Source of the DNA: a virus
Taxonomy: Duplodnaviria; Caudoviricetes
Reading direction: 5' to 3' (one strand)
IMG/VR virus record: IMGVR_UViG_3300044228_003731
Span: 1 to 27,877 of that record
Length of the DNA stretch: 27,877 bases
A program made the translations under genes and the position numbers. The notes under the pieces were generated by a model. The model ran no database searches, was not told where the DNA came from, and saw only the letters and a program-made list of their open reading frames with translations. How positions within the stretch are numbered: position 1 is the first letter of the stretch; the number at the start of each line of letters is the position of its first letter. This document shows, one piece after another, positions 1 through 10,503 of this stretch.

Positions 1-144
1 TACTTCCATACAATATTTAGTCTGCGTTTTCTGCCGCCTTGCTTTCTGATCCCAGTAGTCATACTCTACACGAACTACGGGCTCACGCTCTTCACGCTTG
101 TTGTTACGCTGTATGATATTTTTATTTATGTGAATAATTTTCAT
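1..144 (-). CDS. Conserved phage hypothetical protein, truncated by window edge (MKIIHINKNIIQRNNKREEREPVVRVEY...)
   Basis: Translated by hand. ATG at 144 overlaps the TGA of the upstream gene (ATGA) and the frame is open to position 1. The IH(I/V)N...N.K....EPV pattern is recalled from marine phage proteins. Confidence 0.8.
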   Translation of the reverse strand, partial: MKIIHINKNIIQRNNKREEREPVVRVEYDYWDQKARRQKTQTKYCMEV

Positions 145-491
145 TGTTTGATCCCCTGTTCTCTAGCGGCGTCTTGCATGATCTGGGTTAGAACTGGCTC
201 CAGCTTTTCATCTAATCTTCGAAACTGGGTATCACCAATCCCACCCCTACAGTAAACGGATACTTTAAAGAATTGATGAAAATGAGAACGTCTATTCATC
301 AAGCCATTATTAAACAGATCATATAATAAATTGCTGGCAACACGAAAGCGCTCCAAATATTTATTTTTAGATCTGCCCTGTGGGATTTTACCATCAAAGG
401 GCACCAGCGCGATAAGCTCGTCGTAAAGACAACTAAACCCCTCATTAACCGCCCAAGAGCTCTTGAATAAATTTAATTGATCCCCGTACAT
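141..491 (-). CDS. Phage hypothetical protein (YDLFNNG motif)
   Basis: 116-aa ORF; TAATG coupling with the upstream gene; GGGGGTGAG upstream. Confidence 0.8.
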   Translation of the reverse strand: MYGDQLNLFKSSWAVNEGFSCLYDELIALVPFDGKIPQGRSKNKYLERFRVASNLLYDLFNNGLMNRRSHFHQFFKVSVYCRGGIGDTQFRRLDEKLEPVLTQIMQDAAREQGIKQ

Positions 492-742
492 TACTCACCC
501 CCCAAGAACGTACCCGAACCATCATAAGATATTTTAGAAACCCTAACATTTTTTAGAATTTCATGAATATCAGCAAGCTTAATTCTAACGTACTTATACT
601 TTTTAAAAAGTTCAGGGTTAGATAAGGTTTTCATATCAATCTCAGCATCAGAACAAACAGATACAATTTGCAAAAGATTTTTTAAGTCTCTTTGGTTAAG
701 ACACACACCCTCAAAGTCGACCATGTAAAATTGCTCAGTCAT
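491..742 (-). CDS. Hypothetical protein
   Basis: Start moved to ATG 742 (MTEQFY): SD GAGGAG upstream and ATGA overlap with the previous stop. Confidence 0.7.
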   Translation of the reverse strand: MTEQFYMVDFEGVCLNQRDLKNLLQIVSVCSDAEIDMKTLSNPELFKKYKYVRIKLADIHEILKNVRVSKISYDGSGTFLGGE

Positions 743-1059
743 TTTGGCTCCTCCCACAAATAATCTAATTGGTAAGCGCTGGCGTCCTTAAAGCCACCAG
801 CATTAAATTGATCTAACAATTTGTCATGGACAATAGCTAGTCTGCGCTGGATACGTTCCATTTCACTTTGGTTATACTTGCCCATAAACTCAACTCCATC
901 TAATTGAAGTTCAGTTCTACCGCCAAACTCTTGGATCTCTCCAGCTATTTGCTTAAAGGCCGCACGAAGCGTAGCAATCTGCAAGTAAGTAACCATTTTA
1001 AGTGGGGACAGCTTCAGGCTATCCCAGTCAGGTTGTATTGGATCTTCATATTTTGTCAT
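739..1059 (-). CDS. Hypothetical protein
   Basis: Start moved to ATG 1059 (MTKYED), preceded by AGGAGAAAACT. Confidence 0.75.
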   Translation of the reverse strand: MTKYEDPIQPDWDSLKLSPLKMVTYLQIATLRAAFKQIAGEIQEFGGRTELQLDGVEFMGKYNQSEMERIQRRLAIVHDKLLDQFNAGGFKDASAYQLDYLWEEPK

Positions 1060-1086
1060 AGTTTTCTCCTGTCTAGTTAGTGACAA

Positions 1087-1140
1087 TATCGCATAGATAA
1101 ACTATTAGACTGGACAAATCAAGTAAAAAATTTTATCCCA
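1087..1140 (-). promoter_or_regulatory. Putative sigma70-like promoter with TG(G/C)GATA motifs
   Basis: TTGATT (1122-1117), 17 nt, TATCTA (1099-1094), then TGCGATA; a second TGGGATA at 1140-1134. Confidence 0.5.
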
Positions 1141-1563
1141 TTGAAAAGGTTGTTTACCTTTGAACTCTGGCTTGACCTTATCCAAACCGTCCATCTTCAG
1201 ATCTACAGCGTCAGAACCCTTAAACAAATAGATCTCTGCTACATCAGACGGCGTAGGTTGTTTCTTCACCAGTACCCAGCACGAACCCTTCCCGTGTCTG
1301 GTTAACCACGCTACTTGTGACGGACGTAAATCTACTTTATTGCTTGTGGTATATTTAAGCTCTACAAAATGAAAAGCACCCAGCTGGTCACACATCAACA
1401 GATCTGGTATTCCAGATCCCACCCAGTTTTCAATTCTGGTTAGTATCAGTTTGTAATTCGAGCGACTCGCTGCTTCCTTTACTTGCTTGTAAAATCCGCT
1501 CTCTCGCTTTATTGCGGTTACTGGTATTTTCTTCAGGTGTGATGTCGATTGTGACTGGGGCAT
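1105..1563 (-). CDS. VRR-NUC / PD-(D/E)XK nuclease (Holliday-junction-resolvase-like)
   Basis: Motifs RES.FY, GIPDL, FVELK and LRPSQVAW. The start is uncertain because it overlaps terS by 134 nt. Confidence 0.85.
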   Translation of the reverse strand: MPQSQSTSHLKKIPVTAIKRESGFYKQVKEAASRSNYKLILTRIENWVGSGIPDLLMCDQLGAFHFVELKYTTSNKVDLRPSQVAWLTRHGKGSCWVLVKKQPTPSDVAEIYLFKGSDAVDLKMDGLDKVKPEFKGKQPFQWDKIFYLICPV

Positions 1564-2053
1564 AACTATTTTTAATCTCCTCTAATGCTTTCATTACTTC
1601 TTCCTTAGACATACTGTCTATGCTCCCGTGCCGTATTTCTGATTTATTCACGTAAATATCCCCTTGCGCCATGCCTCGGGCTTTCTCCGCCATAACAGCC
1701 GCAGAGTAAGCACCATTCTGAAGCGCCAGATCACGGATAGTTTGCAGATCACGGATATGCCTGTGAAAAGTAATCCCGTACTTCTCGTCCAGCTCGCGCC
1801 TATATTCTTTAATAGCATGACATACGTGTGGTGATATTCTGGGGTTAGTAAGCTCATAGGCTCTAGTATGTGCAGAGCCAACAGAGTAGCCAGCGTTGAT
1901 TGCTGCCTCTCTAAAGGTTATCTGCCCGTCCTTGCTTACCAGCTCTTTTACAAACAGTTCTTGCTTTCGTGTTAGTGGGCTATGTATATCAGCTGGTCTT
2001 CTACCGCGTGTTTCGTATTGTATTCCTGATTTAGTAGGTCTTCGTCTTGCCAT
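1430..2053 (-). CDS. terS: Terminase small subunit
   Basis: N-terminal HTH pattern LTRKQELFV...AAINAGYS..SA...AYEL...P.V, followed by a helical oligomerisation region (YSAAVMAEKARG). Confidence 0.85.
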   Translation of the reverse strand: MARRRPTKSGIQYETRGRRPADIHSPLTRKQELFVKELVSKDGQITFREAAINAGYSVGSAHTRAYELTNPRISPHVCHAIKEYRRELDEKYGITFHRHIRDLQTIRDLALQNGAYSAAVMAEKARGMAQGDIYVNKSEIRHGSIDSMSKEEVMKALEEIKNSYAPVTIDITPEENTSNRNKARERILQASKGSSESLELQTDTNQN

Positions 2054-2082
2054 GTGTTAATCCAGTTAAAAAGGTCTAGTTC

Positions 2083-2332
2083 GTTATTTCTCTATATACT
2101 ATAGACACAAAATAAAAAAAATAAAAAACCATTTACCCCCCCATTAAGGAACATTTGTTAAATAAGTCTGTAGTAACATAAGTGAAAACAGTAGTGTTAC
2201 CTATTATGTTACCCTAAAAGTCTATATAAATAAGGGGTTTTAGGGCAAAGTAACACGGGTAACACGGGTAACGGCATTTTTTTTCAAAAAAATATTTTTT
2301 TATTTCTAGCTCTATATATATAGGGAAATAAC
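2083..2332. repeat. AT-rich non-coding element with nested inverted repeats and GTTAC/GTAAC iterons (candidate replication origin or packaging site)
   Basis: Outer imperfect IR GTTATTTCTCTATATACTATAGA (2083-2105) / TCTATATATATAGGGAAATAAC (2311-2332). Inner IR CCCTAAAA (2212-2219) / TTTTAGGG (2238-2245). GTTAC at 2196 and 2208; GTAAC at 2173, 2250, 2259 and 2268. Confidence 0.75.
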
Positions 2333-2511
2333 TACAACAAGTGCCAAGAGTTCCGAAAACGACCATCATTATACTCTTTTTGTTTCGTGAGCATCTGTTC
2401 AGCGTCTTTGCGATTTGTCACGTTATTCGTGATCCGATGTCCAGCGGCCTCGATATAATACAAGCGTTTATTGTCGAAGCCTTTTATTTCTTTAATAACA
2501 AACTTATCCAA
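2332..2511 (-). CDS. Small hypothetical protein, 59 aa (MDKFVIKEIKGFDNKRLYYIEAAGHRIT...)
   Basis: Translated by hand. The TTG start overlaps the end of the upstream gene and the ORF fills the gap to the non-coding element. No clear SD. Confidence 0.5.
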   Translation of the reverse strand: MDKFVIKEIKGFDNKRLYYIEAAGHRITNNVTNRKDAEQMLTKQKEYNDGRFRNSWHLL

Positions 2512-2821
2512 CGGACATTTGGTGCAGCAGTTCTTTTACTTGCGTGGCGTCGCTACACTCTTTTAATTTTTTCTTATAAAATGTCGATGTAAACTTTGGC
2601 AGCTCCCTATCAAAACGTTGCTGCGCCATGATCTCATCTTTCTTTCTGCACTCCAGCTCGTAAAAGAGCTCATCATTCTCCAGCTTAAATGTTTTTGCCT
2701 CTGAGTGTTCGTCACGTATCTTACAGATCTGCTGCACCAGCATATTAACATTGATACGTATCTTTACTTGCTTTTCTGAGAACTGTCGTATTTCTTTTGT
2801 AGTTAGTGGTGTTATCTTCAT
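2504..2821 (-). CDS. Hypothetical protein
   Basis: 105-aa ORF; ATGA overlap; AAGGAA upstream. Confidence 0.65.
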   Translation of the reverse strand: MKITPLTTKEIRQFSEKQVKIRINVNMLVQQICKIRDEHSEAKTFKLENDELFYELECRKKDEIMAQQRFDRELPKFTSTFYKKKLKECSDATQVKELLHQMSVG

Positions 2822-3054
2822 GGTTGTTTCCTTAGCATTTCTAATACGGTGATGAGCGCATCAACAGCTCCTACATTGTAAGACGCCTCTTCAGGCGAGA
2901 TCTGTGGACTATTAATATTGATCTGTTTATAACTTAGTATCTGCTGCTCCACGTATTCGGTTATTATTTCTATTTTAAGACTAAGTTTTCCCATATGTTT
3001 CATGGCCTGTGTGTGGTTGCCCACGACTTTTGGGTTAATGTTTTTTATGCCCAT
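2818..3054 (-). CDS. Hypothetical protein
   Basis: Likely start ATG 3054 after GAGGATAAAG (the track starts at 3066). Confidence 0.6.
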   Translation of the reverse strand: MGIKNINPKVVGNHTQAMKHMGKLSLKIEIITEYVEQQILSYKQININSPQISPEEASYNVGAVDALITVLEMLRKQP

Positions 3055-3226
3055 CTTTATCCTCATTCATTATCATGTCGGCTAAGTTTTCAAAATCTTG
3101 CGCGATATACACTATGTTTGTGTATTGTATATACTTAGCTATTTTTATTATTTTCTTTGTTTCATCGTCGTCGGGGAGCAAGCCGCGCTCCCCATATTCT
3201 ATAATATAGCGGAGGACCTGTTCCAC
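3035..3226 (-). CDS. Hypothetical protein
   Basis: GTG start coupled to the upstream TAG (TAGTG); AGGA upstream. Confidence 0.6.
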   Translation of the reverse strand: MEQVLRYIIEYGERGLLPDDDETKKIIKIAKYIQYTNIVYIAQDFENLADMIMNEDKDGHKKH

Positions 3227-3384
3227 TAGAGTCCTAGTACTTCCCGTAAAATACCGCTCGGTACGGGGCTATCCTCATCTATTTTACCTATGCGCAATGT
3301 AACGTACCCATCATCGTTTATTTCTATATACGATACATCGTCTGTTAGATTATTCAAAGCATTGGTTAGCTCATTCCATGTCAT
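3226..3384 (-). CDS. Small acidic hypothetical protein, 52 aa (MTWNELTNALNNLTDDVSYIEINDDGYVTLRIGK...)
   Basis: Not in the ORF track. Strong SD GGAGG 6 nt before ATG; fills the gap between neighbours exactly. Confidence 0.7.
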   Translation of the reverse strand: MTWNELTNALNNLTDDVSYIEINDDGYVTLRIGKIDEDSPVPSGILREVLGL

Positions 3385-3715
3385 CGTCTTCCTCCATACT
3401 TATATGTCTATCTATTTCGTCAATCGCGCCTTTTAGTTCTTTTACTGTGGCGTGTATGTTTGACGGATCTTGTCGAGCTTCGGGACAATTACGGAGCGTG
3501 TCGTAAGAGTCATCTATCAAGCGCAGTAAAACTTTCTTAGCTATACTGAGCTCGCTTGGCGGTTCTTCTAAACTCTCGGTAATTATATTGTCCTTCTTCT
3601 TGGCCCATGTTTCGAGAGCTGGTATGCAGACCTCGTAATATTCCTCGCACGTAAACGTTCCGATTTCCTCGGACCAAGAGCCCGTTTCACTTTGTAGATG
3701 TACCCGTACTGTCAT
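3371..3715 (-). CDS. Phage hypothetical protein
   Basis: 114-aa ORF with SD GGAGAG; first gene after the promoter at 3774. Confidence 0.75.
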   Translation of the reverse strand: MTVRVHLQSETGSWSEEIGTFTCEEYYEVCIPALETWAKKKDNIITESLEEPPSELSIAKKVLLRLIDDSYDTLRNCPEARQDPSNIHATVKELKGAIDEIDRHISMEEDDDME

Positions 3716-3739
3716 TTATCTCTCCATAGTTGTTGTGTT

Positions 3740-3774
3740 TATCCCATACAATCACAGATAAAAGGTCCTGTCAA
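3740..3774 (-). promoter_or_regulatory. Putative promoter with TATGGGATA motif
   Basis: Perfect TTGACA (3774-3769) directly after a terminator; degenerate -10 overlapped by TATGGGATA (3748-3740). Confidence 0.55.
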
Positions 3775-3778
3775 CACG

Positions 3779-3808
3779 AAAAAAGCCCCCCAGAAAACTG
3801 AGGGGCTT
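3779..3808 (-). terminator. Rho-independent terminator
   Basis: AAGCCCCUCAG-UUUU-CUGGGGGGCUU hairpin running into a U tract. Confidence 0.85.
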
Positions 3809-3848
3809 CCAACATAACTACGGGAGAGGGCCTATGACTTCCCTCAGT
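3779..3848 (-). ncRNA. Candidate ~70-nt small RNA with anti-SD segment
   Basis: Has its own promoter (3882-3854), no credible ORF, and ends at an intrinsic terminator. Contains CUCUCCCGUAGUUAUGUUG. Confidence 0.55.
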
Positions 3849-3853
3849 ATCCA

Positions 3854-3882
3854 GTTATACGCGAGTATATAAGACTTTACAA
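3854..3882 (-). promoter_or_regulatory. Sigma70-like promoter
   Basis: TTGTAA (3882-3877), 17 nt, TATAAC (3859-3854). The -35 contains the TAA stop of the upstream gene. Confidence 0.6.
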
Positions 3883-4128
3883 GCTTTTTTTTGATTTTTT
3901 ATTATTAAAGCCGTCAGGCGTGATAAAACTTTTTTTCATATCGGTTCGAATACGTTTGATAGTTTCTTCATCGTCAAAAATTTTAGAGTAGTCTACCTCT
4001 TTTTTCTTTTTTCGGCGTGTCATATGTTTAATTGTTTCTAAAACTTCCTTACTGAAGTGGCGTATTTGGTGGTCAGTGTTTGTTTTTTTGAGAAAATTAT
4101 TAATGTTTGCTAAATATTCTAATTTCAT
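3877..4128 (-). CDS. Lys-rich hypothetical protein
   Basis: 83-aa ORF with ATGA overlap. Confidence 0.6.
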   Translation of the reverse strand: MKLEYLANINNFLKKTNTDHQIRHFSKEVLETIKHMTRRKKKKEVDYSKIFDDEETIKRIRTDMKKSFITPDGFNNKKSKKSL

Positions 4129-4358
4129 TTCATAAACTCGGGTTTGCGTAAAGGTATACGTATCTCGGGGAGATAGGTATCTACTTTAACACAATTTTTT
4201 TGGCCGACAATAGGATCGTTTTGCTGGCCTAACATTTCTGCGTAGTGTTCGCATTGATCAAAATTTTCAAAGTAAATACGGTGGATAGCACGCTGGTCAC
4301 TCTCGATATCGGGCACGGTTATCAGGTACAATATAAAGTAAACAATATCAGGCGTCAT
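4125..4358 (-). CDS. Small protein with hydrophobic N-terminus and two Cys (possibly exported or membrane-anchored)
   Basis: IVYFILYLITV segment, then F.....C...C; SD AGAGGA. Confidence 0.65.
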   Translation of the reverse strand: MTPDIVYFILYLITVPDIESDQRAIHRIYFENFDQCEHYAEMLGQQNDPIVGQKNCVKVDTYLPEIRIPLRKPEFMK

Positions 4359-4545
4359 AGTCTAATCCTCTGTAGTCCACAGTATAACTATTTTCAACCG
4401 CTTCACCCTCATGCGGTATACGAAACCGTATATTAACTTGTGTATGATCCCGATACTCTGTTTCGCGTAGCGACCACTTCGATACGGGGCACTTTTCTAG
4501 CCACAAATCAAACTCTGTACGAGCGGTATATTCTTTCTTCGTCAT
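4348..4545 (-). CDS. Hypothetical protein
   Basis: 65 aa; SD AGGAGAAAGAT before ATG. Confidence 0.7.
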   Translation of the reverse strand: MTKKEYTARTEFDLWLEKCPVSKWSLRETEYRDHTQVNIRFRIPHEGEAVENSYTVDYRGLDYDA

Positions 4546-4573
4546 ATCTTTCTCCTATAGTAATATATATAAC

Positions 4574-4608
4574 TTATCCCATATTATAGCCAAATTTTTT
4601 TACGTCAA
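4574..4608 (-). promoter_or_regulatory. Putative promoter with TATGGGATAA motif
   Basis: TTGACG (4608-4603); TAATAT at 16-nt spacing or TATAAT at 14-nt spacing; overlapped by TATGGGATAA (4583-4574). Confidence 0.55.
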
Positions 4609-4763
4609 GGCTTAGGGTCAAGCTTTTCTTTTAATTTATTATAAATTTGCCAGATAATTTTTAGCTGGCCGCTGATTGTTCGTCCGCGATCCGAGCTCGT
4701 CCGCTTAATTTCCTCGTAAACTTCTTTGGGAACGAGAACCGATTTCCATTTTTCTGTGTCCAT
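4605..4763 (-). CDS. Ribbon-helix-helix (Arc/CopG-like) DNA-binding protein, 52 aa
   Basis: Translated by hand: MDTEKWKSVLVPKEVYEEIKRTSSDRGRTISGQLKIIWQIYNKLKEKLDPKP. Pattern is beta strand (KSVLVP), helix, GRTIS turn, helix. SD AAGGA and a dedicated promoter. Confidence 0.75.
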   Translation of the reverse strand: MDTEKWKSVLVPKEVYEEIKRTSSDRGRTISGQLKIIWQIYNKLKEKLDPKP

Positions 4764-4780
4764 AAGGGGTCCTTATATAG

Positions 4781-4820
4781 TATCTTACAGGACTATATAA
4801 GATAATATGTAAAGATGCAA
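4781..4820 (-). promoter_or_regulatory. Sigma70-like promoter of the RHH gene with palindromic operator
   Basis: TTGCAT (4820-4815), 17 nt, TATAGT (4797-4792). IR TATCTTA (4781-4787)-N10-TAAGATA (4798-4804) flanks the -10. Confidence 0.65.
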
Positions 4821-4821
4821 G

Positions 4822-4846
4822 AAAAAAAGCCCCGCCAAGCGGGGCT
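4822..4846 (-). terminator. Rho-independent terminator downstream of polA
   Basis: AGCCCCGC-UUG-GCGGGGCU followed by a U tract. Confidence 0.88.
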
Positions 4847-4873
4847 AGGGTGGGAGGAAAGAACCGAAAAAGT
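4822..4873 (-). ncRNA. Candidate ~52-nt CU-rich small RNA (or polA 3' UTR)
   Basis: Extended -10 TG-A-TATACT (4888-4880) built on the polA stop codon; body UUCUUUCCUCCCACCC; ends at the terminator. Confidence 0.35.
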
Positions 4874-4885
4874 GTTAGCAGTATA

Positions 4886-6778
4886 TCATTTGGCTGTTCC
4901 CCAGTCGGGGCCAACCTCAATGTCACACTTGCTCGGTATTTCTAATTCTACCGCAGTTTCCATAATCTGCGAAACAGTTTCTGCCTCTTTCCTATCTTTG
5001 ACCGACATAGCTATTTCATCATGGATCTGTATGAGCGGTATACGGCCTGTATTGTAGATATTAACCATGGCTTGTTTGGTCATATCGGCGGCTGACGCCT
5101 GAATTAATCTATTCAGGGCCTTGTAGGTGTACGCACGCTTCAGGCGTGTGGTATCGCCATGCTCTTGCACCGCTTCGCGGTACGGGAGGGCTTTGTTCAT
5201 CTCGAATGTATCGGGCTCCCACAGATCAAAACGACACTTACGGCCCAGCAACGAGCGTATCGAGCCGCTGCTGCTCTTGTCGTTGAGTCTATTTTGCACG
5301 CCAGTCATTAGCATCTTAACAAAGGGCACCCGTGTATGATACTGACGCACCAGCTCTCGGGCTTCGTCAAGCGTGATATCCAGCTGGTCAGACATTTTGC
5401 CCACTCCCATACCGTACATCAGGCCCAAGTTTATTGTCTTTGCTTGCTTTCGTGGTATTTGTGCCATTTCGGCAACCATTGTATGAAAGTCCATATCGGG
5501 ATTGTTCCGATAGCCGTGGACAAACTCCTCTACACCGTCCAGCGTGAGCCCTTTGCTTTTACCATACACATACGCATAGTGAACCAATATGCGTGGTTCC
5601 TGTTGCGAGAAGTCAATCGCGGCCCATTTTTCGCCCTCTTCGGGGAGGAACAGAGAGCGAATCATAGGACCAAGCTCAGGATCCCGTGCTGGGATCTGCT
5701 GTAGGTTCGGGTTATTCATGGATATACGCCCTGACACAGTACCGCCGTCGTCGGAGCGTATTTGATTTATGTGGCTGTGTATGCGCCCGTCGGAGTGACA
5801 ATGCTTCATAATTGTATTGATAAACGTCCCCGAGGTCTTGTTTAAGTTACGGGCTTGGACAATCAGCTGCGGTAGTTCGTGGCTGTGATCACTCAGAAAT
5901 TGTTTCGTGAACGAGGGTGCCCCTTTGTCGGTCCGTGGGTAATCTATGCTCAGAGCCTCAAAGGCCTTCGCTATGGAGGCGGCAGCCCATATTTCGATGT
6001 CGTGGCCCACAAGTTTCTTAATGCGCCCCAGTATCTCTTTTTCGCGTTTTAGGAGCGAATTGCGTGTATGCTCAACCTTATCTTGATCTACACGGACACC
6101 GCGCCATGTCATATCAATCAGGCACGGGAGTAGATCGAGCTCAAGATTAGCGATTGGCCACAGATCTTCTTTACCCAGTTGTCCTGATAAATAGTTCCAG
6201 AGTTCGAGTGTGAGCTCGGCGTCACCTTCGGCATACGGTCCGACATACATGGCTGGCATCTTCCAGAGCTCGGCTTTTGGGTCCAGACCAAACCCACGTG
6301 CGGCTTCTATCAGGTTCTTTTCGGACTTGACCTTACCCAGATGATCGTAAGCCAGCGCATTTAGACTATAGCTAAACCGGTTCTCGTCCAAGAGCGACGC
6401 TATCAGCATGGTATCTATAATGCGTCCATTAAGCGTGAAGCCCATGCGGCGTATCCAGCCAGCATCATACTGGGCATTGTGCATGATTTTGTCTGCTGGG
6501 CTTTCAAAGACTTTCTTTAGCCATTTGTTTACCACACGCTCGTCAAGATTACCGCCATACTTATGACGAATGGGTATATAGCCGGACCAATCACTCACGG
6601 CTATGGCGTAACCAACAACTTCTCCATCGCCAGTTGCCCAACCAGCTCCCATTGTCTTGATGTTGGGATCGCGTGTTTCGACATCTATTGCTATTTGCTT
6701 GGCCTCAAATATGTTTGGCAGCTCACTAGGCGGCAACCATTCTGACTTTGGCGTATCAAACGCTAACTGCAAGGCCAT
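4886..6778 (-). CDS. polA: Phage family A DNA polymerase with 3'-5' exonuclease domain
   Basis: ExoI IDVET, ExoII HNAQYD, ExoIII YAEGD; motif A DFSQQEPR, motif B RKQAKTINLGLMYG, motif C IHDE. Start moved to ATG 6778 (TAATG coupling, SD AGGAG). Confidence 0.97.
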   Translation of the reverse strand: MALQLAFDTPKSEWLPPSELPNIFEAKQIAIDVETRDPNIKTMGAGWATGDGEVVGYAIAVSDWSGYIPIRHKYGGNLDERVVNKWLKKVFESPADKIMHNAQYDAGWIRRMGFTLNGRIIDTMLIASLLDENRFSYSLNALAYDHLGKVKSEKNLIEAARGFGLDPKAELWKMPAMYVGPYAEGDAELTLELWNYLSGQLGKEDLWPIANLELDLLPCLIDMTWRGVRVDQDKVEHTRNSLLKREKEILGRIKKLVGHDIEIWAAASIAKAFEALSIDYPRTDKGAPSFTKQFLSDHSHELPQLIVQARNLNKTSGTFINTIMKHCHSDGRIHSHINQIRSDDGGTVSGRISMNNPNLQQIPARDPELGPMIRSLFLPEEGEKWAAIDFSQQEPRILVHYAYVYGKSKGLTLDGVEEFVHGYRNNPDMDFHTMVAEMAQIPRKQAKTINLGLMYGMGVGKMSDQLDITLDEARELVRQYHTRVPFVKMLMTGVQNRLNDKSSSGSIRSLLGRKCRFDLWEPDTFEMNKALPYREAVQEHGDTTRLKRAYTYKALNRLIQASAADMTKQAMVNIYNTGRIPLIQIHDEIAMSVKDRKEAETVSQIMETAVELEIPSKCDIEVGPDWGTAK

Positions 6779-8959: not shown

Positions 8960-10503
8960 TAAAATACCTCTTTATTTTCTTGAGCACCAAAATCAGGAGC
9001 GTTAAGCTCCACGTTTACAGCATCAAAGGACGGTATCTGCCACACGCGGATAGGCCGTCCTTTAATCTTTAAAAGCACACTTTCACCACCCATATCGCGC
9101 AGACGCTGCGCTATCTTGTGGCTCTTATACTCAAAAAACTTGTTGCGTTTTAGAAACGCATCAAAGTCTTTTAGTCGAAAGTATGTTTTTTGTTCCTCTT
9201 CATCGGTCCATGGCCGCTTGAGTAATATCTCTTCTTTGTCCTGTGCCTGTTGCATATGGCGGCAGAACTCCTCAAGGTAGTCATAAAACTGGCCTGTAAT
9301 ACTAGCGTCCTGTGCTACTTCTATGATAGCGCTTTCATTGTCCTTCATTTCTTGCATCAGGCCACCTATACGGTTTTCCCATAGGATCTTTGATACAGAA
9401 CGTGGCATAAAGTTTAGTTGCTCCATGCAAGAGCGCTGAAAGGTAGATTGATTAAGTAGCGCATCGGTGTCCATCTCCAACGGCTCACCGTTCACATCGA
9501 CAAACCACACAGGCGGCGTAGAGTTATACTTACGTAAGTTTGCAATCACCGCGCCCTGTACGGCTGCTCCTACACCGTGTTTACGTGTAAGGCATAGTGT
9601 TTTATTGCAATGCGCGTTGATGGGCGCGTCGCTACATTTGTATACGTAATCTTTCTTTTCAAGCTGCTTTGCTACAATGTTCACCTCATTTAGCGGTAGA
9701 GGCGGCTCTAAATACTCCATATTGTATTTCAATATCTCGGACTCCCAGCTGTCTGGGTAGGCCTTGCGTAGATAGACGCCCAAGTTAAATAAGCCATTGT
9801 TACGACCACCCTCTGATATTTTATTCTTAGCCAGTATCTGTAGGCAAGGGGGACCATCTGTGAGCTGGTGCTGTTCCGTGTCGCCACCTATCTGTAGCTT
9901 GGTTACTTGCTCAGGCGTTTGCTTATATTTTTCATAGAGTTCTATAAACTCGTCTAGGGTAGCGCTGGTGCCGTCGTCCTTGATGGCATACCGCAGGCCC
10001 TCTTCTGCATCAAAGTACGGCAAGTTGAGAAAGTTGCCCACATCATCGCGGTCTAAATGTAATTTTATCTGCTTTGGAAAGATCTCACTGCCACCATAAC
10101 CTAGTGCAGCTGATATCTGCTGTAACGTAAACTGCATATCTTTGGCGTCAATCCACTCTGTTGTAAATAAGAAACAGTGTGCGCCGCCTGACTTAGAGCG
10201 ACATATAACCAAGGGCAGTTTAAGTTTTCTAATCTTATCTATTAGTGCTTTGTGGTCTAGGGGGTACTGATCAACATCAATACACCCCCAAACACATCTA
10301 TTGTCTTCATTGATAGGTATGATACCAACGGCCCTACCTTTACCTGACAAGTGCCCTTCCCACAGATCCTTGGTCCGTGGTTCGCGTACTATTGCAGCGC
10401 GGCCCGTGCTCTTACCGTTCAGTTGCTTTTTATCTATCTTAAACGTGCCATACGCGAGTTGCAGACCGTTAAAGATAGCGGCAAATTTATCAGCAGAAGA
10501 CAT
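8959..10503 (-). CDS. Archaeo-eukaryotic primase (AEP) superfamily primase with C-terminal accessory domains
   Basis: Motif I WGCIDVD, motif II SKSGGAH, EIFPKQ, GNFLNLPY; PriCT-like GGRNNGLF...PPLPLNEV. No Walker A motif. Confidence 0.85.
   Translation of the reverse strand: MSSADKFAAIFNGLQLAYGTFKIDKKQLNGKSTGRAAIVREPRTKDLWEGHLSGKGRAVGIIPINEDNRCVWGCIDVDQYPLDHKALIDKIRKLKLPLVICRSKSGGAHCFLFTTEWIDAKDMQFTLQQISAALGYGGSEIFPKQIKLHLDRDDVGNFLNLPYFDAEEGLRYAIKDDGTSATLDEFIELYEKYKQTPEQVTKLQIGGDTEQHQLTDGPPCLQILAKNKISEGGRNNGLFNLGVYLRKAYPDSWESEILKYNMEYLEPPLPLNEVNIVAKQLEKKDYVYKCSDAPINAHCNKTLCLTRKHGVGAAVQGAVIANLRKYNSTPPVWFVDVNGEPLEMDTDALLNQSTFQRSCMEQLNFMPRSVSKILWENRIGGLMQEMKDNESAIIEVAQDASITGQFYDYLEEFCRHMQQAQDKEEILLKRPWTDEEEQKTYFRLKDFDAFLKRNKFFEYKSHKIAQRLRDMGGESVLLKIKGRPIRVWQIPSFDAVNVELNAPDFGAQENKEVF

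Follow-up and report, generated by a model that had tools for sequence, protein, structure and literature searches.

A candidate small antisense RNA gene with a lineage-specific seed in relatives of HTVC023P-type marine podoviruses

Layout of the locus

The DNA analyzed here, which we refer to as the window, is the whole stretch of 27,877 nucleotides in IMG/VR virus record IMGVR_UViG_3300044228_003731. Its family A DNA polymerase shares 49-56% identity with the counterparts in DSL-LC04, 023Pt_psg01, HTVC023P and HTVC027P, which makes the 27.9-kb record a relative of the HTVC023P-type marine podoviruses, a group that passages of one report describe as lytic, devoid of integrases and the most abundant marine phage group known (10.1101/2019.12.14.876532). 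The unit under study lies on the minus strand amid short hypothetical genes, with the genes for DNA polymerase and the small terminase subunit as its flanks, and the genes around it are likely early, judging from their place behind host-type promoters. The small terminase subunit gene (1430-2053, minus strand) sits in the middle of this early-type region and overlaps a VRR-NUC-like nuclease gene (1105-1563, minus strand). Comparing positions 3300-4900 with annotated phages, we found no DNA likeness save two pieces at chance level. The operon 3' of the RNA gene (2300-3715) is hypervariable, with genes inserted or swapped at several points behind a constant promoter and leader.

A preliminary description of this DNA had placed a promoter, TTGTAA-17-TATAAC, at 3882-3854, and direct reading of the minus strand finds it there, with the -35 hexamer TTGTAA (3882-3877) overlapping the stop codon of an 83-aa ORF (4128-3877), a 17-nt spacer and the -10 hexamer TATAAC (3859-3854). 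Because a consensus promoter scan, which requires a T at position 6 of the -10, does not list this site, the prediction of a sigma-70-type promoter rests on its sequence and on the conservation of both hexamers in close relatives. Transcription would start at about 3850-3847 and yield a predicted small RNA of about 70 nt (3848-3779, minus strand), called from its fold, its conservation as a unit and its lack of a credible ORF; the last had been claimed before and agrees with our finding of no ORF of at least 45 aa inside, the body before the terminator being about 40 nt long. The intrinsic terminator (3810-3779, minus strand) appears in our scan list and is as strong as had been described, with a 13-pair stem (3810-3781) that is the longest within 12 kb. 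Folded as a whole, the 74-nt RNA reaches -32.5 kcal/mol (z -3.95), and because its 5' 39 nt alone give only z -0.31, this folding signal is the terminator's. At gathering score, window positions 1-6000 matched no Rfam family, and nine other loci likewise matched none. A single contig, uncertain in kind, stops at 3779 where the U-run ends; we did not count it as evidence, and flanking sequence from the sequencing run with this contig was absent from all 348 loci.

The core of the RNA, which we term the seed, is an anti-Shine-Dalgarno and anti-leader stretch at 3828-3810 (minus strand) whose conserved part is UCCCGUAGUU at 3825-3816. In this clade only, a 5' hairpin spans 3845-3826 (minus strand) and presents the loop GUCAUAG at 3838-3832; should the RNA begin at 3848-3850, its own 5' stem is predicted to engage much of the seed. 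A plus-strand mini-ORF that would use the reverse complement of the core as its ribosome-binding site (ATG at 3834, 12 codons) was considered and rejected, as indels in relatives shift its frame (judged by eye). Beyond the terminator follows a predicted promoter of the variable early operon (3774-3742, minus strand). The next gene had been credited with a TTGACA promoter of its own, of which the perfect -35 (3774-3769), kept among relatives, stands, and the -10 proved poor.

To anchor the unit by position throughout the phage group we used a ribbon-helix-helix-like (RHH) protein of 52 aa (4763-4605, minus strand; Pfam RHH_5, E 2.3e-05, 24.5 bits with a cut-off of 26), a candidate transcriptional regulator whose N-terminal strand is conserved (15 sequences). 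Tandem repeats with a 10-bp period lie inside the RNA promoter (3874-3858, minus strand) and inside the RHH gene promoter (4802-4786, minus strand), and the spacers of these two promoters are the only sites in the window with the repeat pattern, which was defined after data inspection. Both are candidate RHH operators, to which the RHH protein would bind. Single half-sites at 3742 (the one at 3748-3742 in the variable operon promoter), 4577 and 1089 fall in the promoters of the three predicted targets discussed below.

Close relatives and predicted leader pairing

Searching for close relatives, we recovered nine viral stretches with an exact 25-nt match and 29 with a looser pattern. Among 41 loci fetched by the RHH protein alone (at least 90% identity), 38 contain the core and the remaining three are sequences that end 616-962 nt past the RHH start, so that conservation in relatives, which had been named as a test, is borne out. 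The conserved part UCCCGUAGUU is present in all 37 distinct clade sequences, with a nearly invariant core between flanks that vary, and promoter hexamers, loop, seed and terminator are all conserved across close relatives. The leader motif is retained in 35 of these 37 sequences, though genomes differ in which gene opens the downstream operon. Pairing within the RNA was evaluated in 19 aligned RNAs, in which 97% of cells are paired and three two-sided changes occur, one within the 5' hairpin. By element, the terminator has 100% of cells paired and two pairs changed on both sides, and the 5' hairpin has 90.5% of cells paired, one two-sided change (L251) and two one-sided ones. Both hairpins thus appear to allow compensatory change, which is supportive only, as the aligned RNAs are related sequences, with the L030 row short in the alignment. 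We regard the unit as a real, conserved element and, very probably, a small RNA gene.

A pattern scan for a short seed behind TTGACA returned 43 stretches, of which only six also had the RHH gene and a terminator, all of them contigs already in our set. In the stretches retrieved for HTVC023P, HTVC027P, 023Pt_psg01 and DSL-LC04 we found no clear homologue of the promoter-short RNA-terminator arrangement; without one in HTVC027P, the published transcriptome of that phage, as presented in passages of PMC12753301, cannot test this RNA.

Core 3828-3810 can pair with leader 3735-3720 of the gene at 3715 through 6 bp, a 1-nt bulge, 5 bp (one G:U), a 2-nt bulge and 5 bp. This is the pairing set out in the preliminary description, and it holds as described except in its 3' part (AUGUUG), which is poorly conserved as against the 37/37 of UCCCGUAGUU. 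Scoring the 70-nt RNA against 31 window leaders with opening costs included (leaders were assigned manually, and for a few the codon chosen may be wrong), we found the three leaders named beforehand at ranks 1 to 3 of 31. These are the leader and start of the 114-aa gene 3715-3371 (3735-3711, minus strand; -15.4 kcal/mol), the leader of the 65-aa gene 4545-4348 (4561-4541, minus strand; -11.8 kcal/mol) and the leader of gene 1059-739 (1081-1055, minus strand; -11.1 kcal/mol), the latter two of which had been called partly similar to the first. Gene 4545-4348 lies upstream of the RNA gene and gene 1059-739 lies 2.7 kb downstream. Among 1,000 dinucleotide shuffles of the RNA body, 23 bound the 3715 leader at least as strongly, 13 the 4545 leader and 25 the 1059 leader, and four equalled or surpassed the binding summed over all three; the leader at 4358, bound as strongly by 173 of 1,000, was not significant. 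Binding to the window leaders is above chance, yet modest leader by leader.

A further predicted contact, absent from the preliminary description, involves the loop GUCAUAG, which can pair with the start-codon regions of 4545, 1059 and 4358 and, in a duplex model, also with that of 3715; the hairpin that carries it is conserved in the clade. With the loop pairing at the start codon, the entire core would read as a mirror image of a translation-initiation region. Seed-leader pairing in this clade carries a bulge or an A-C mismatch. A family search with 16 predicted target proteins gave no functional clue.

Seeds and leaders in distant lineages

Anchoring a distant search on the RHH gene 4763-4605, we used the best 80 of 158, the best 80 of 557 and the best 80 of 435 RHH relatives, plus five in genome bins. 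The resulting 286 RHH-bearing loci (same-contig repeats included) comprise 251 with a terminator within 2.2 kb and 35 with none, and a promoter-like site stands ahead of the unit in 246 of the 251 (same-contig repeats again included). Leaving out 20 of the 251 (15 without a promoter-led leader within 700 nt, five without a promoter) kept 231 loci, which reduced to 58 RNA bodies, chosen by position alone, and these to 22 clusters. The five bins (L330-L334) belong to unrelated phyla, and three of them also hold a phage polymerase, which suggests that the bins are probably misbinned phage contigs and uninformative on host.

Own leaders were bound more strongly than foreign ones across the 22 clusters (mean z -0.96), a value as low as which arose in 0 of 100,000 permutations (p ~1e-5), and the controls were flat, with p 0.39 for the reverse complement of the body and p 0.44 for an upstream stretch. 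The own leader ranked first in five of the 22 clusters and within the top five in 12. Merging the clusters, which are related to one another, into 10 seed types drawn by hand after data inspection left the own-leader preference at p = 0.0012. In the 22-cluster run the first leader of L001 was set at the wrong codon, and the 10-seed-type run used the window in its place; there the window's own leader took only rank 8 of 22 for its RNA. Covariation of seed and leader in relatives, which had been proposed as a check, is therefore found at both levels of grouping.

Evaluating individual lineages, we found the match carried by different sequences. Seed CCUCAUAA matches its own leader UUAUGAGG (L086, L311), with CCUCAUG and own leader CAUGAGG as a variant of this pair (L322); seed UUUAUUGUCCA matches own leader UGGACAAUAAA (L096), seed CUCCGUA own leader UACGGAG (L137) and seed UCCCGUAGU leader ACUACGGGA, and L126 has a two-part seed-leader match. 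In L212 and L113 only about 12-15 nt separate promoter and terminator, and those nucleotides are the seed. Own-leader preference was absent in four of the 22 clusters (L246, L308, L314, L332) and almost absent in L203. The promoter repeat is missing as well from four of the five, whose terminators may have been wrongly picked. Six lineages (L323, L325, L330, L310, L241, L221) place a different 5' hairpin with a C-rich loop ahead of a like seed, and this loop may be a second contact site. A polymerase tree had four of 20 inner branches well supported, with three clusters lacking the polymerase, and being mostly without resolution it gives no order of seed changes.

These matches bear on whether the unit does anything at all. 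In favor of a terminator after an inverted leader relic, retained by shared descent, are the single-leader p of only 0.013-0.025 and the missing folding signal of the 5' part alone. However, the core is near-invariant amid varying flanks and the matches recur with unrelated sequences in several lineages; this cross-lineage match largely refutes a functionless relic, which we consider exceedingly improbable.

They bear equally on whether the motifs act in DNA rather than RNA. Among promoters of the 22 clusters, 11 contain the tandem repeat and 17 at least one half-site, and TCCCGTA, which is one half-site form, occurs inside the seed in seven of the 22 cluster representatives, the window clade among them, so that a DNA-level role is possible for this clade. 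Seed and leader motifs would on such an account be oppositely oriented RHH operator half-sites and their complementarity a by-product, in keeping with a core TCCCGTA that equals the promoter-spacer repeat and a reverse complement that resembles a Shine-Dalgarno sequence. The comparison of G:U with A-C beside the seed likewise gave no RNA-specific signal (17 clusters, eight in favor of a G:U excess and five opposed, p 0.58; the window's clade has 19 G:U and 45 A-C). Yet clusters resemble one another in their promoter repeats and in the N-terminal strand of the RHH protein, the seeds of L094, L126 and L331 match their own leaders with no half-site in them, and in every case the core runs antisense to the leader, with a flat reverse-complement control as given above. 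We regard operator half-sites as a quite improbable explanation of the complementarity.

A third alternative takes the RNA as real and its match to own leaders as secondary, its main targets being host or competing-phage mRNAs, or its role being RNA stability or activation. An anti-Shine-Dalgarno stretch can pair with many leaders, and foreign leaders with a like seed score as well as the window's own. Repression usually involves pairing across the Shine-Dalgarno sequence and the start codon. The predicted pairing covers both, as is common for repressing RNAs, and fold prediction shows no structure in the 3715 leader, which leaves nothing for an activating RNA to open. The satellite RNA SviR provides a precedent for other targets, as it lowers translation of another phage's mRNAs according to passages of its description (10.1101/2022.04.08.487710); against this, the seeds here follow the leaders of their own phage, lineage by lineage, and foreign or activating roles as the main function seem to us very improbable.

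We then considered how many leaders one seed may reach. In three longer genomes a single seed matches about five to seven leaders, kilobases distant and past terminators. In G003 the best five of 79 leaders, up to 8 kb distant, carry UUAUG(A/G)GG; in G005 the best five of 38 leaders, plus two more, carry UACGGA; and in G001 and G002 AACUA(C/U) precedes the Shine-Dalgarno sequence in five or six leaders. The mean of the top five leaders beat 120 of 120 seed shuffles in G003 (z -3.9), G005 (z -4.0) and G001 (z -2.5). It was not significant for two records: 34 of 120 shuffles did as well in the window and 11 of 120 in G004, whose seed is similar to that of G005 and scores on the G005 leaders instead. 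A perfect 10-nt match to the seed of the window's clade precedes the gene after the portal gene in G001 (L336:17730-17755) and G002 (L347:18795-18820), 14 kb from the RNA gene; this gene is not early, and its leader in G001 was the strongest of 10 leaders tested (-14.3 kcal/mol). Homologues of this gene in G003, G004, G005 and L332 showed no match to their own seeds (by eye).

Two readings had been offered in the preliminary description, a trans-acting anti-RBS RNA and a cis fold-back that silences read-through transcripts. On the second reading, as we framed it, the core would act only in read-through or upstream-promoter transcripts, folding onto the next leader and keeping the early operon silent. 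In the predicted fold of a 139-nt read-through RNA the core indeed pairs with the leader and start codon of 3715 (-49.2 kcal/mol, z -2.95), and in most clusters the best target is adjacent to the unit. Furthermore, no terminator was found from 3809 to 1059 and the 4545 mRNA would end in the unit's terminator, so that each of the three sites in the window could lie on one transcript with the core. Folding in cis may serve the adjacent gene, but it fails for distant sites: matching leaders in G003, G005, G001 and G002 stand 1-14 kb off, most of them separated from the RNA gene by predicted terminators, and in the L086 cluster the first matching leader comes 374 nt on with a whole gene between. 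Nor would it need a promoter directly before a 12-nt seed, as seen in L212 and L113. We consider cis action alone unlikely, and the distant matching leaders beyond terminators favor action in trans, the reading that the co-changing seeds and multiple leaders also support.

Proposed mode of action and known systems

At the level of sequence, the unit has three features of a trans-encoded sRNA gene: a promoter and an intrinsic terminator of its own that enclose a short ORF-free stretch, a short seed complementary to initiation regions elsewhere, including ones past terminators, and a seed and target that change together, with four to five of the 22 clusters lacking a match. We propose that it probably encodes a trans-acting antisense RNA that shuts off the phage's own early genes. 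Host RNA polymerase would start near 3848 and stop at the terminator (3779), and in the resulting terminator-protected RNA the seed would cover the Shine-Dalgarno sequence and the bases just 5' of it on several putatively early mRNAs, keeping ribosomes off them in trans. In this clade the seed matches imperfectly, and the hairpin loop would make an additional contact, at the start codon. Most of the proposed targets are the first genes after host-type promoters of their own. The RNA, if stable and made from the start of infection, would accumulate and so end the burst of early protein synthesis, and the RHH protein would control the same promoter set at the DNA level.

To our knowledge, proteins are credited with shutting off early genes in such phages. 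A 50-70-nt RNA matching a leader motif of its own that five to seven genes share would, if real, be a different shut-off design, for which the natural seed variants are ready-made swap experiments. A more speculative extension, which we hold doubtful, is that of a lineage-specific RNA lock and key, with the RNA silencing its own early regulon and also later-arriving phages with the same seed. Such a lock and key would amount to superinfection exclusion by RNA alone in a lytic phage, would explain seed replacement between lineages despite constant layout and RHH regulator, and would supply the missing partner for start-associated repeats of other phages.

Seeing no description of this RNA in Rfam or in the openly readable literature (supplements aside; the motif lists of PMC5737381 could bear on it), we compared it with known systems. 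C4 of P1/P7, in passages of PMC8198154, is an antisense RNA that maintains lysogeny by controlling icd-ant, with which it shares an operon. Like C4, the RNA predicted here is phage-encoded and would lower genes of its own phage by transcript pairing; unlike C4, the unit is a seed plus terminator, down to about 50 nt, faces several separate leaders and occurs in a group described as lytic and integrase-free. Membership of the C4 family was rejected, with no model match in window positions 1-6000 (E up to 5) or, at gathering score, in nine other loci, as was a C4-type operon, with no icd or antirepressor families among 14 neighbor proteins and the 16 predicted targets, the window being a partial genome.

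A closer parallel in arrangement comes from the SAS motif of Cluster K mycobacteriophages, which according to passages of PMC3203893 overlaps, in one orientation, the ribosome-binding sites of some non-structural genes; four genomes have a single inverted copy away from gene starts, and operator-like repeats lie beside some of the motifs. Passages of that 2011 report leave open whether the binding partner is RNA or protein, and the present unit makes it testable whether start-associated repeats in phages are RNA-bound (PMC3203893). A repeated RBS motif with a lone inverted copy is likewise found here, clearly in G003, G005 and G002 and more loosely in G001, and the window has only three loose copies of this kind. 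Here a predicted promoter precedes the inverted copy, a predicted terminator follows it, and its sequence changes in step with the leaders, whereas passages of PMC3203893 do not call theirs an RNA gene. The two share no sequence likeness and at most work alike.

Sar of P22 and OOP of lambda each overlap their target on the opposite strand. Both are small phage RNAs, Sar blocking initiation of ant translation according to passages of PMC12197685. Like them, the RNA predicted here would turn phage genes down by base pairing; unlike them, with one target each tied to the decision whether to lyse or lysogenize, it has several predicted targets and imperfect pairing. A cis-encoded antisense RNA of the Sar/OOP type was rejected, as the RNA lies on the same strand as all its predicted targets, overlaps none of them and pairs imperfectly. 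An antitoxin RNA of type I toxin-antitoxin systems was rejected too, there being no fixed partner and the gene behind the adjacent leader being swapped in close relatives. SviR of the Vibrio cholerae satellite PLE is, in passages of 10.1101/2022.04.08.487710, a trans-acting, multi-target RNA that lowers translation of phage mRNAs, and the RNA predicted here would likewise be trans-acting and multi-target and is encoded in a viral element. Unlike SviR, which those passages present as conserved in sequence and also hitting another genome, the seed here is lineage-specific and matches a leader motif shared within its own genome.

Pyrimidine-rich seeds invite a last comparison, with sRNAs of alphaproteobacteria. 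Those of the MmgR/suhB type use an anti-Shine-Dalgarno mechanism with a C/U-rich seed, and like them the present RNA has an exposed pyrimidine-rich seed followed by an intrinsic terminator; unlike them it is phage-borne, and its specificity seems to come from bases flanking the Shine-Dalgarno sequence. Membership of the family (RF00519, threshold 41 bits) was rejected for lack of a match on this RNA. Elsewhere in the window, a C/U-rich stretch (4814-4880, minus strand) precedes the terminator that ends the DNA polymerase gene, and here 4880-4814 gave a weak suhB/MmgR match (RF00519; 21.3 bits of the 41 required). Relatives retain a pyrimidine-rich stretch at this site, with a promoter-like site before it in L124 and L126, and a second small RNA is possibly encoded there. 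In 023Pt_psg01, positions 10190-10560 of L058 form a long gene-free stretch that looks structured and has no Rfam match, and the other strand of this phage carries one candidate unit, in which a promoter-like site and a U/C-rich stretch are joined by a strong terminator, located near 10492.
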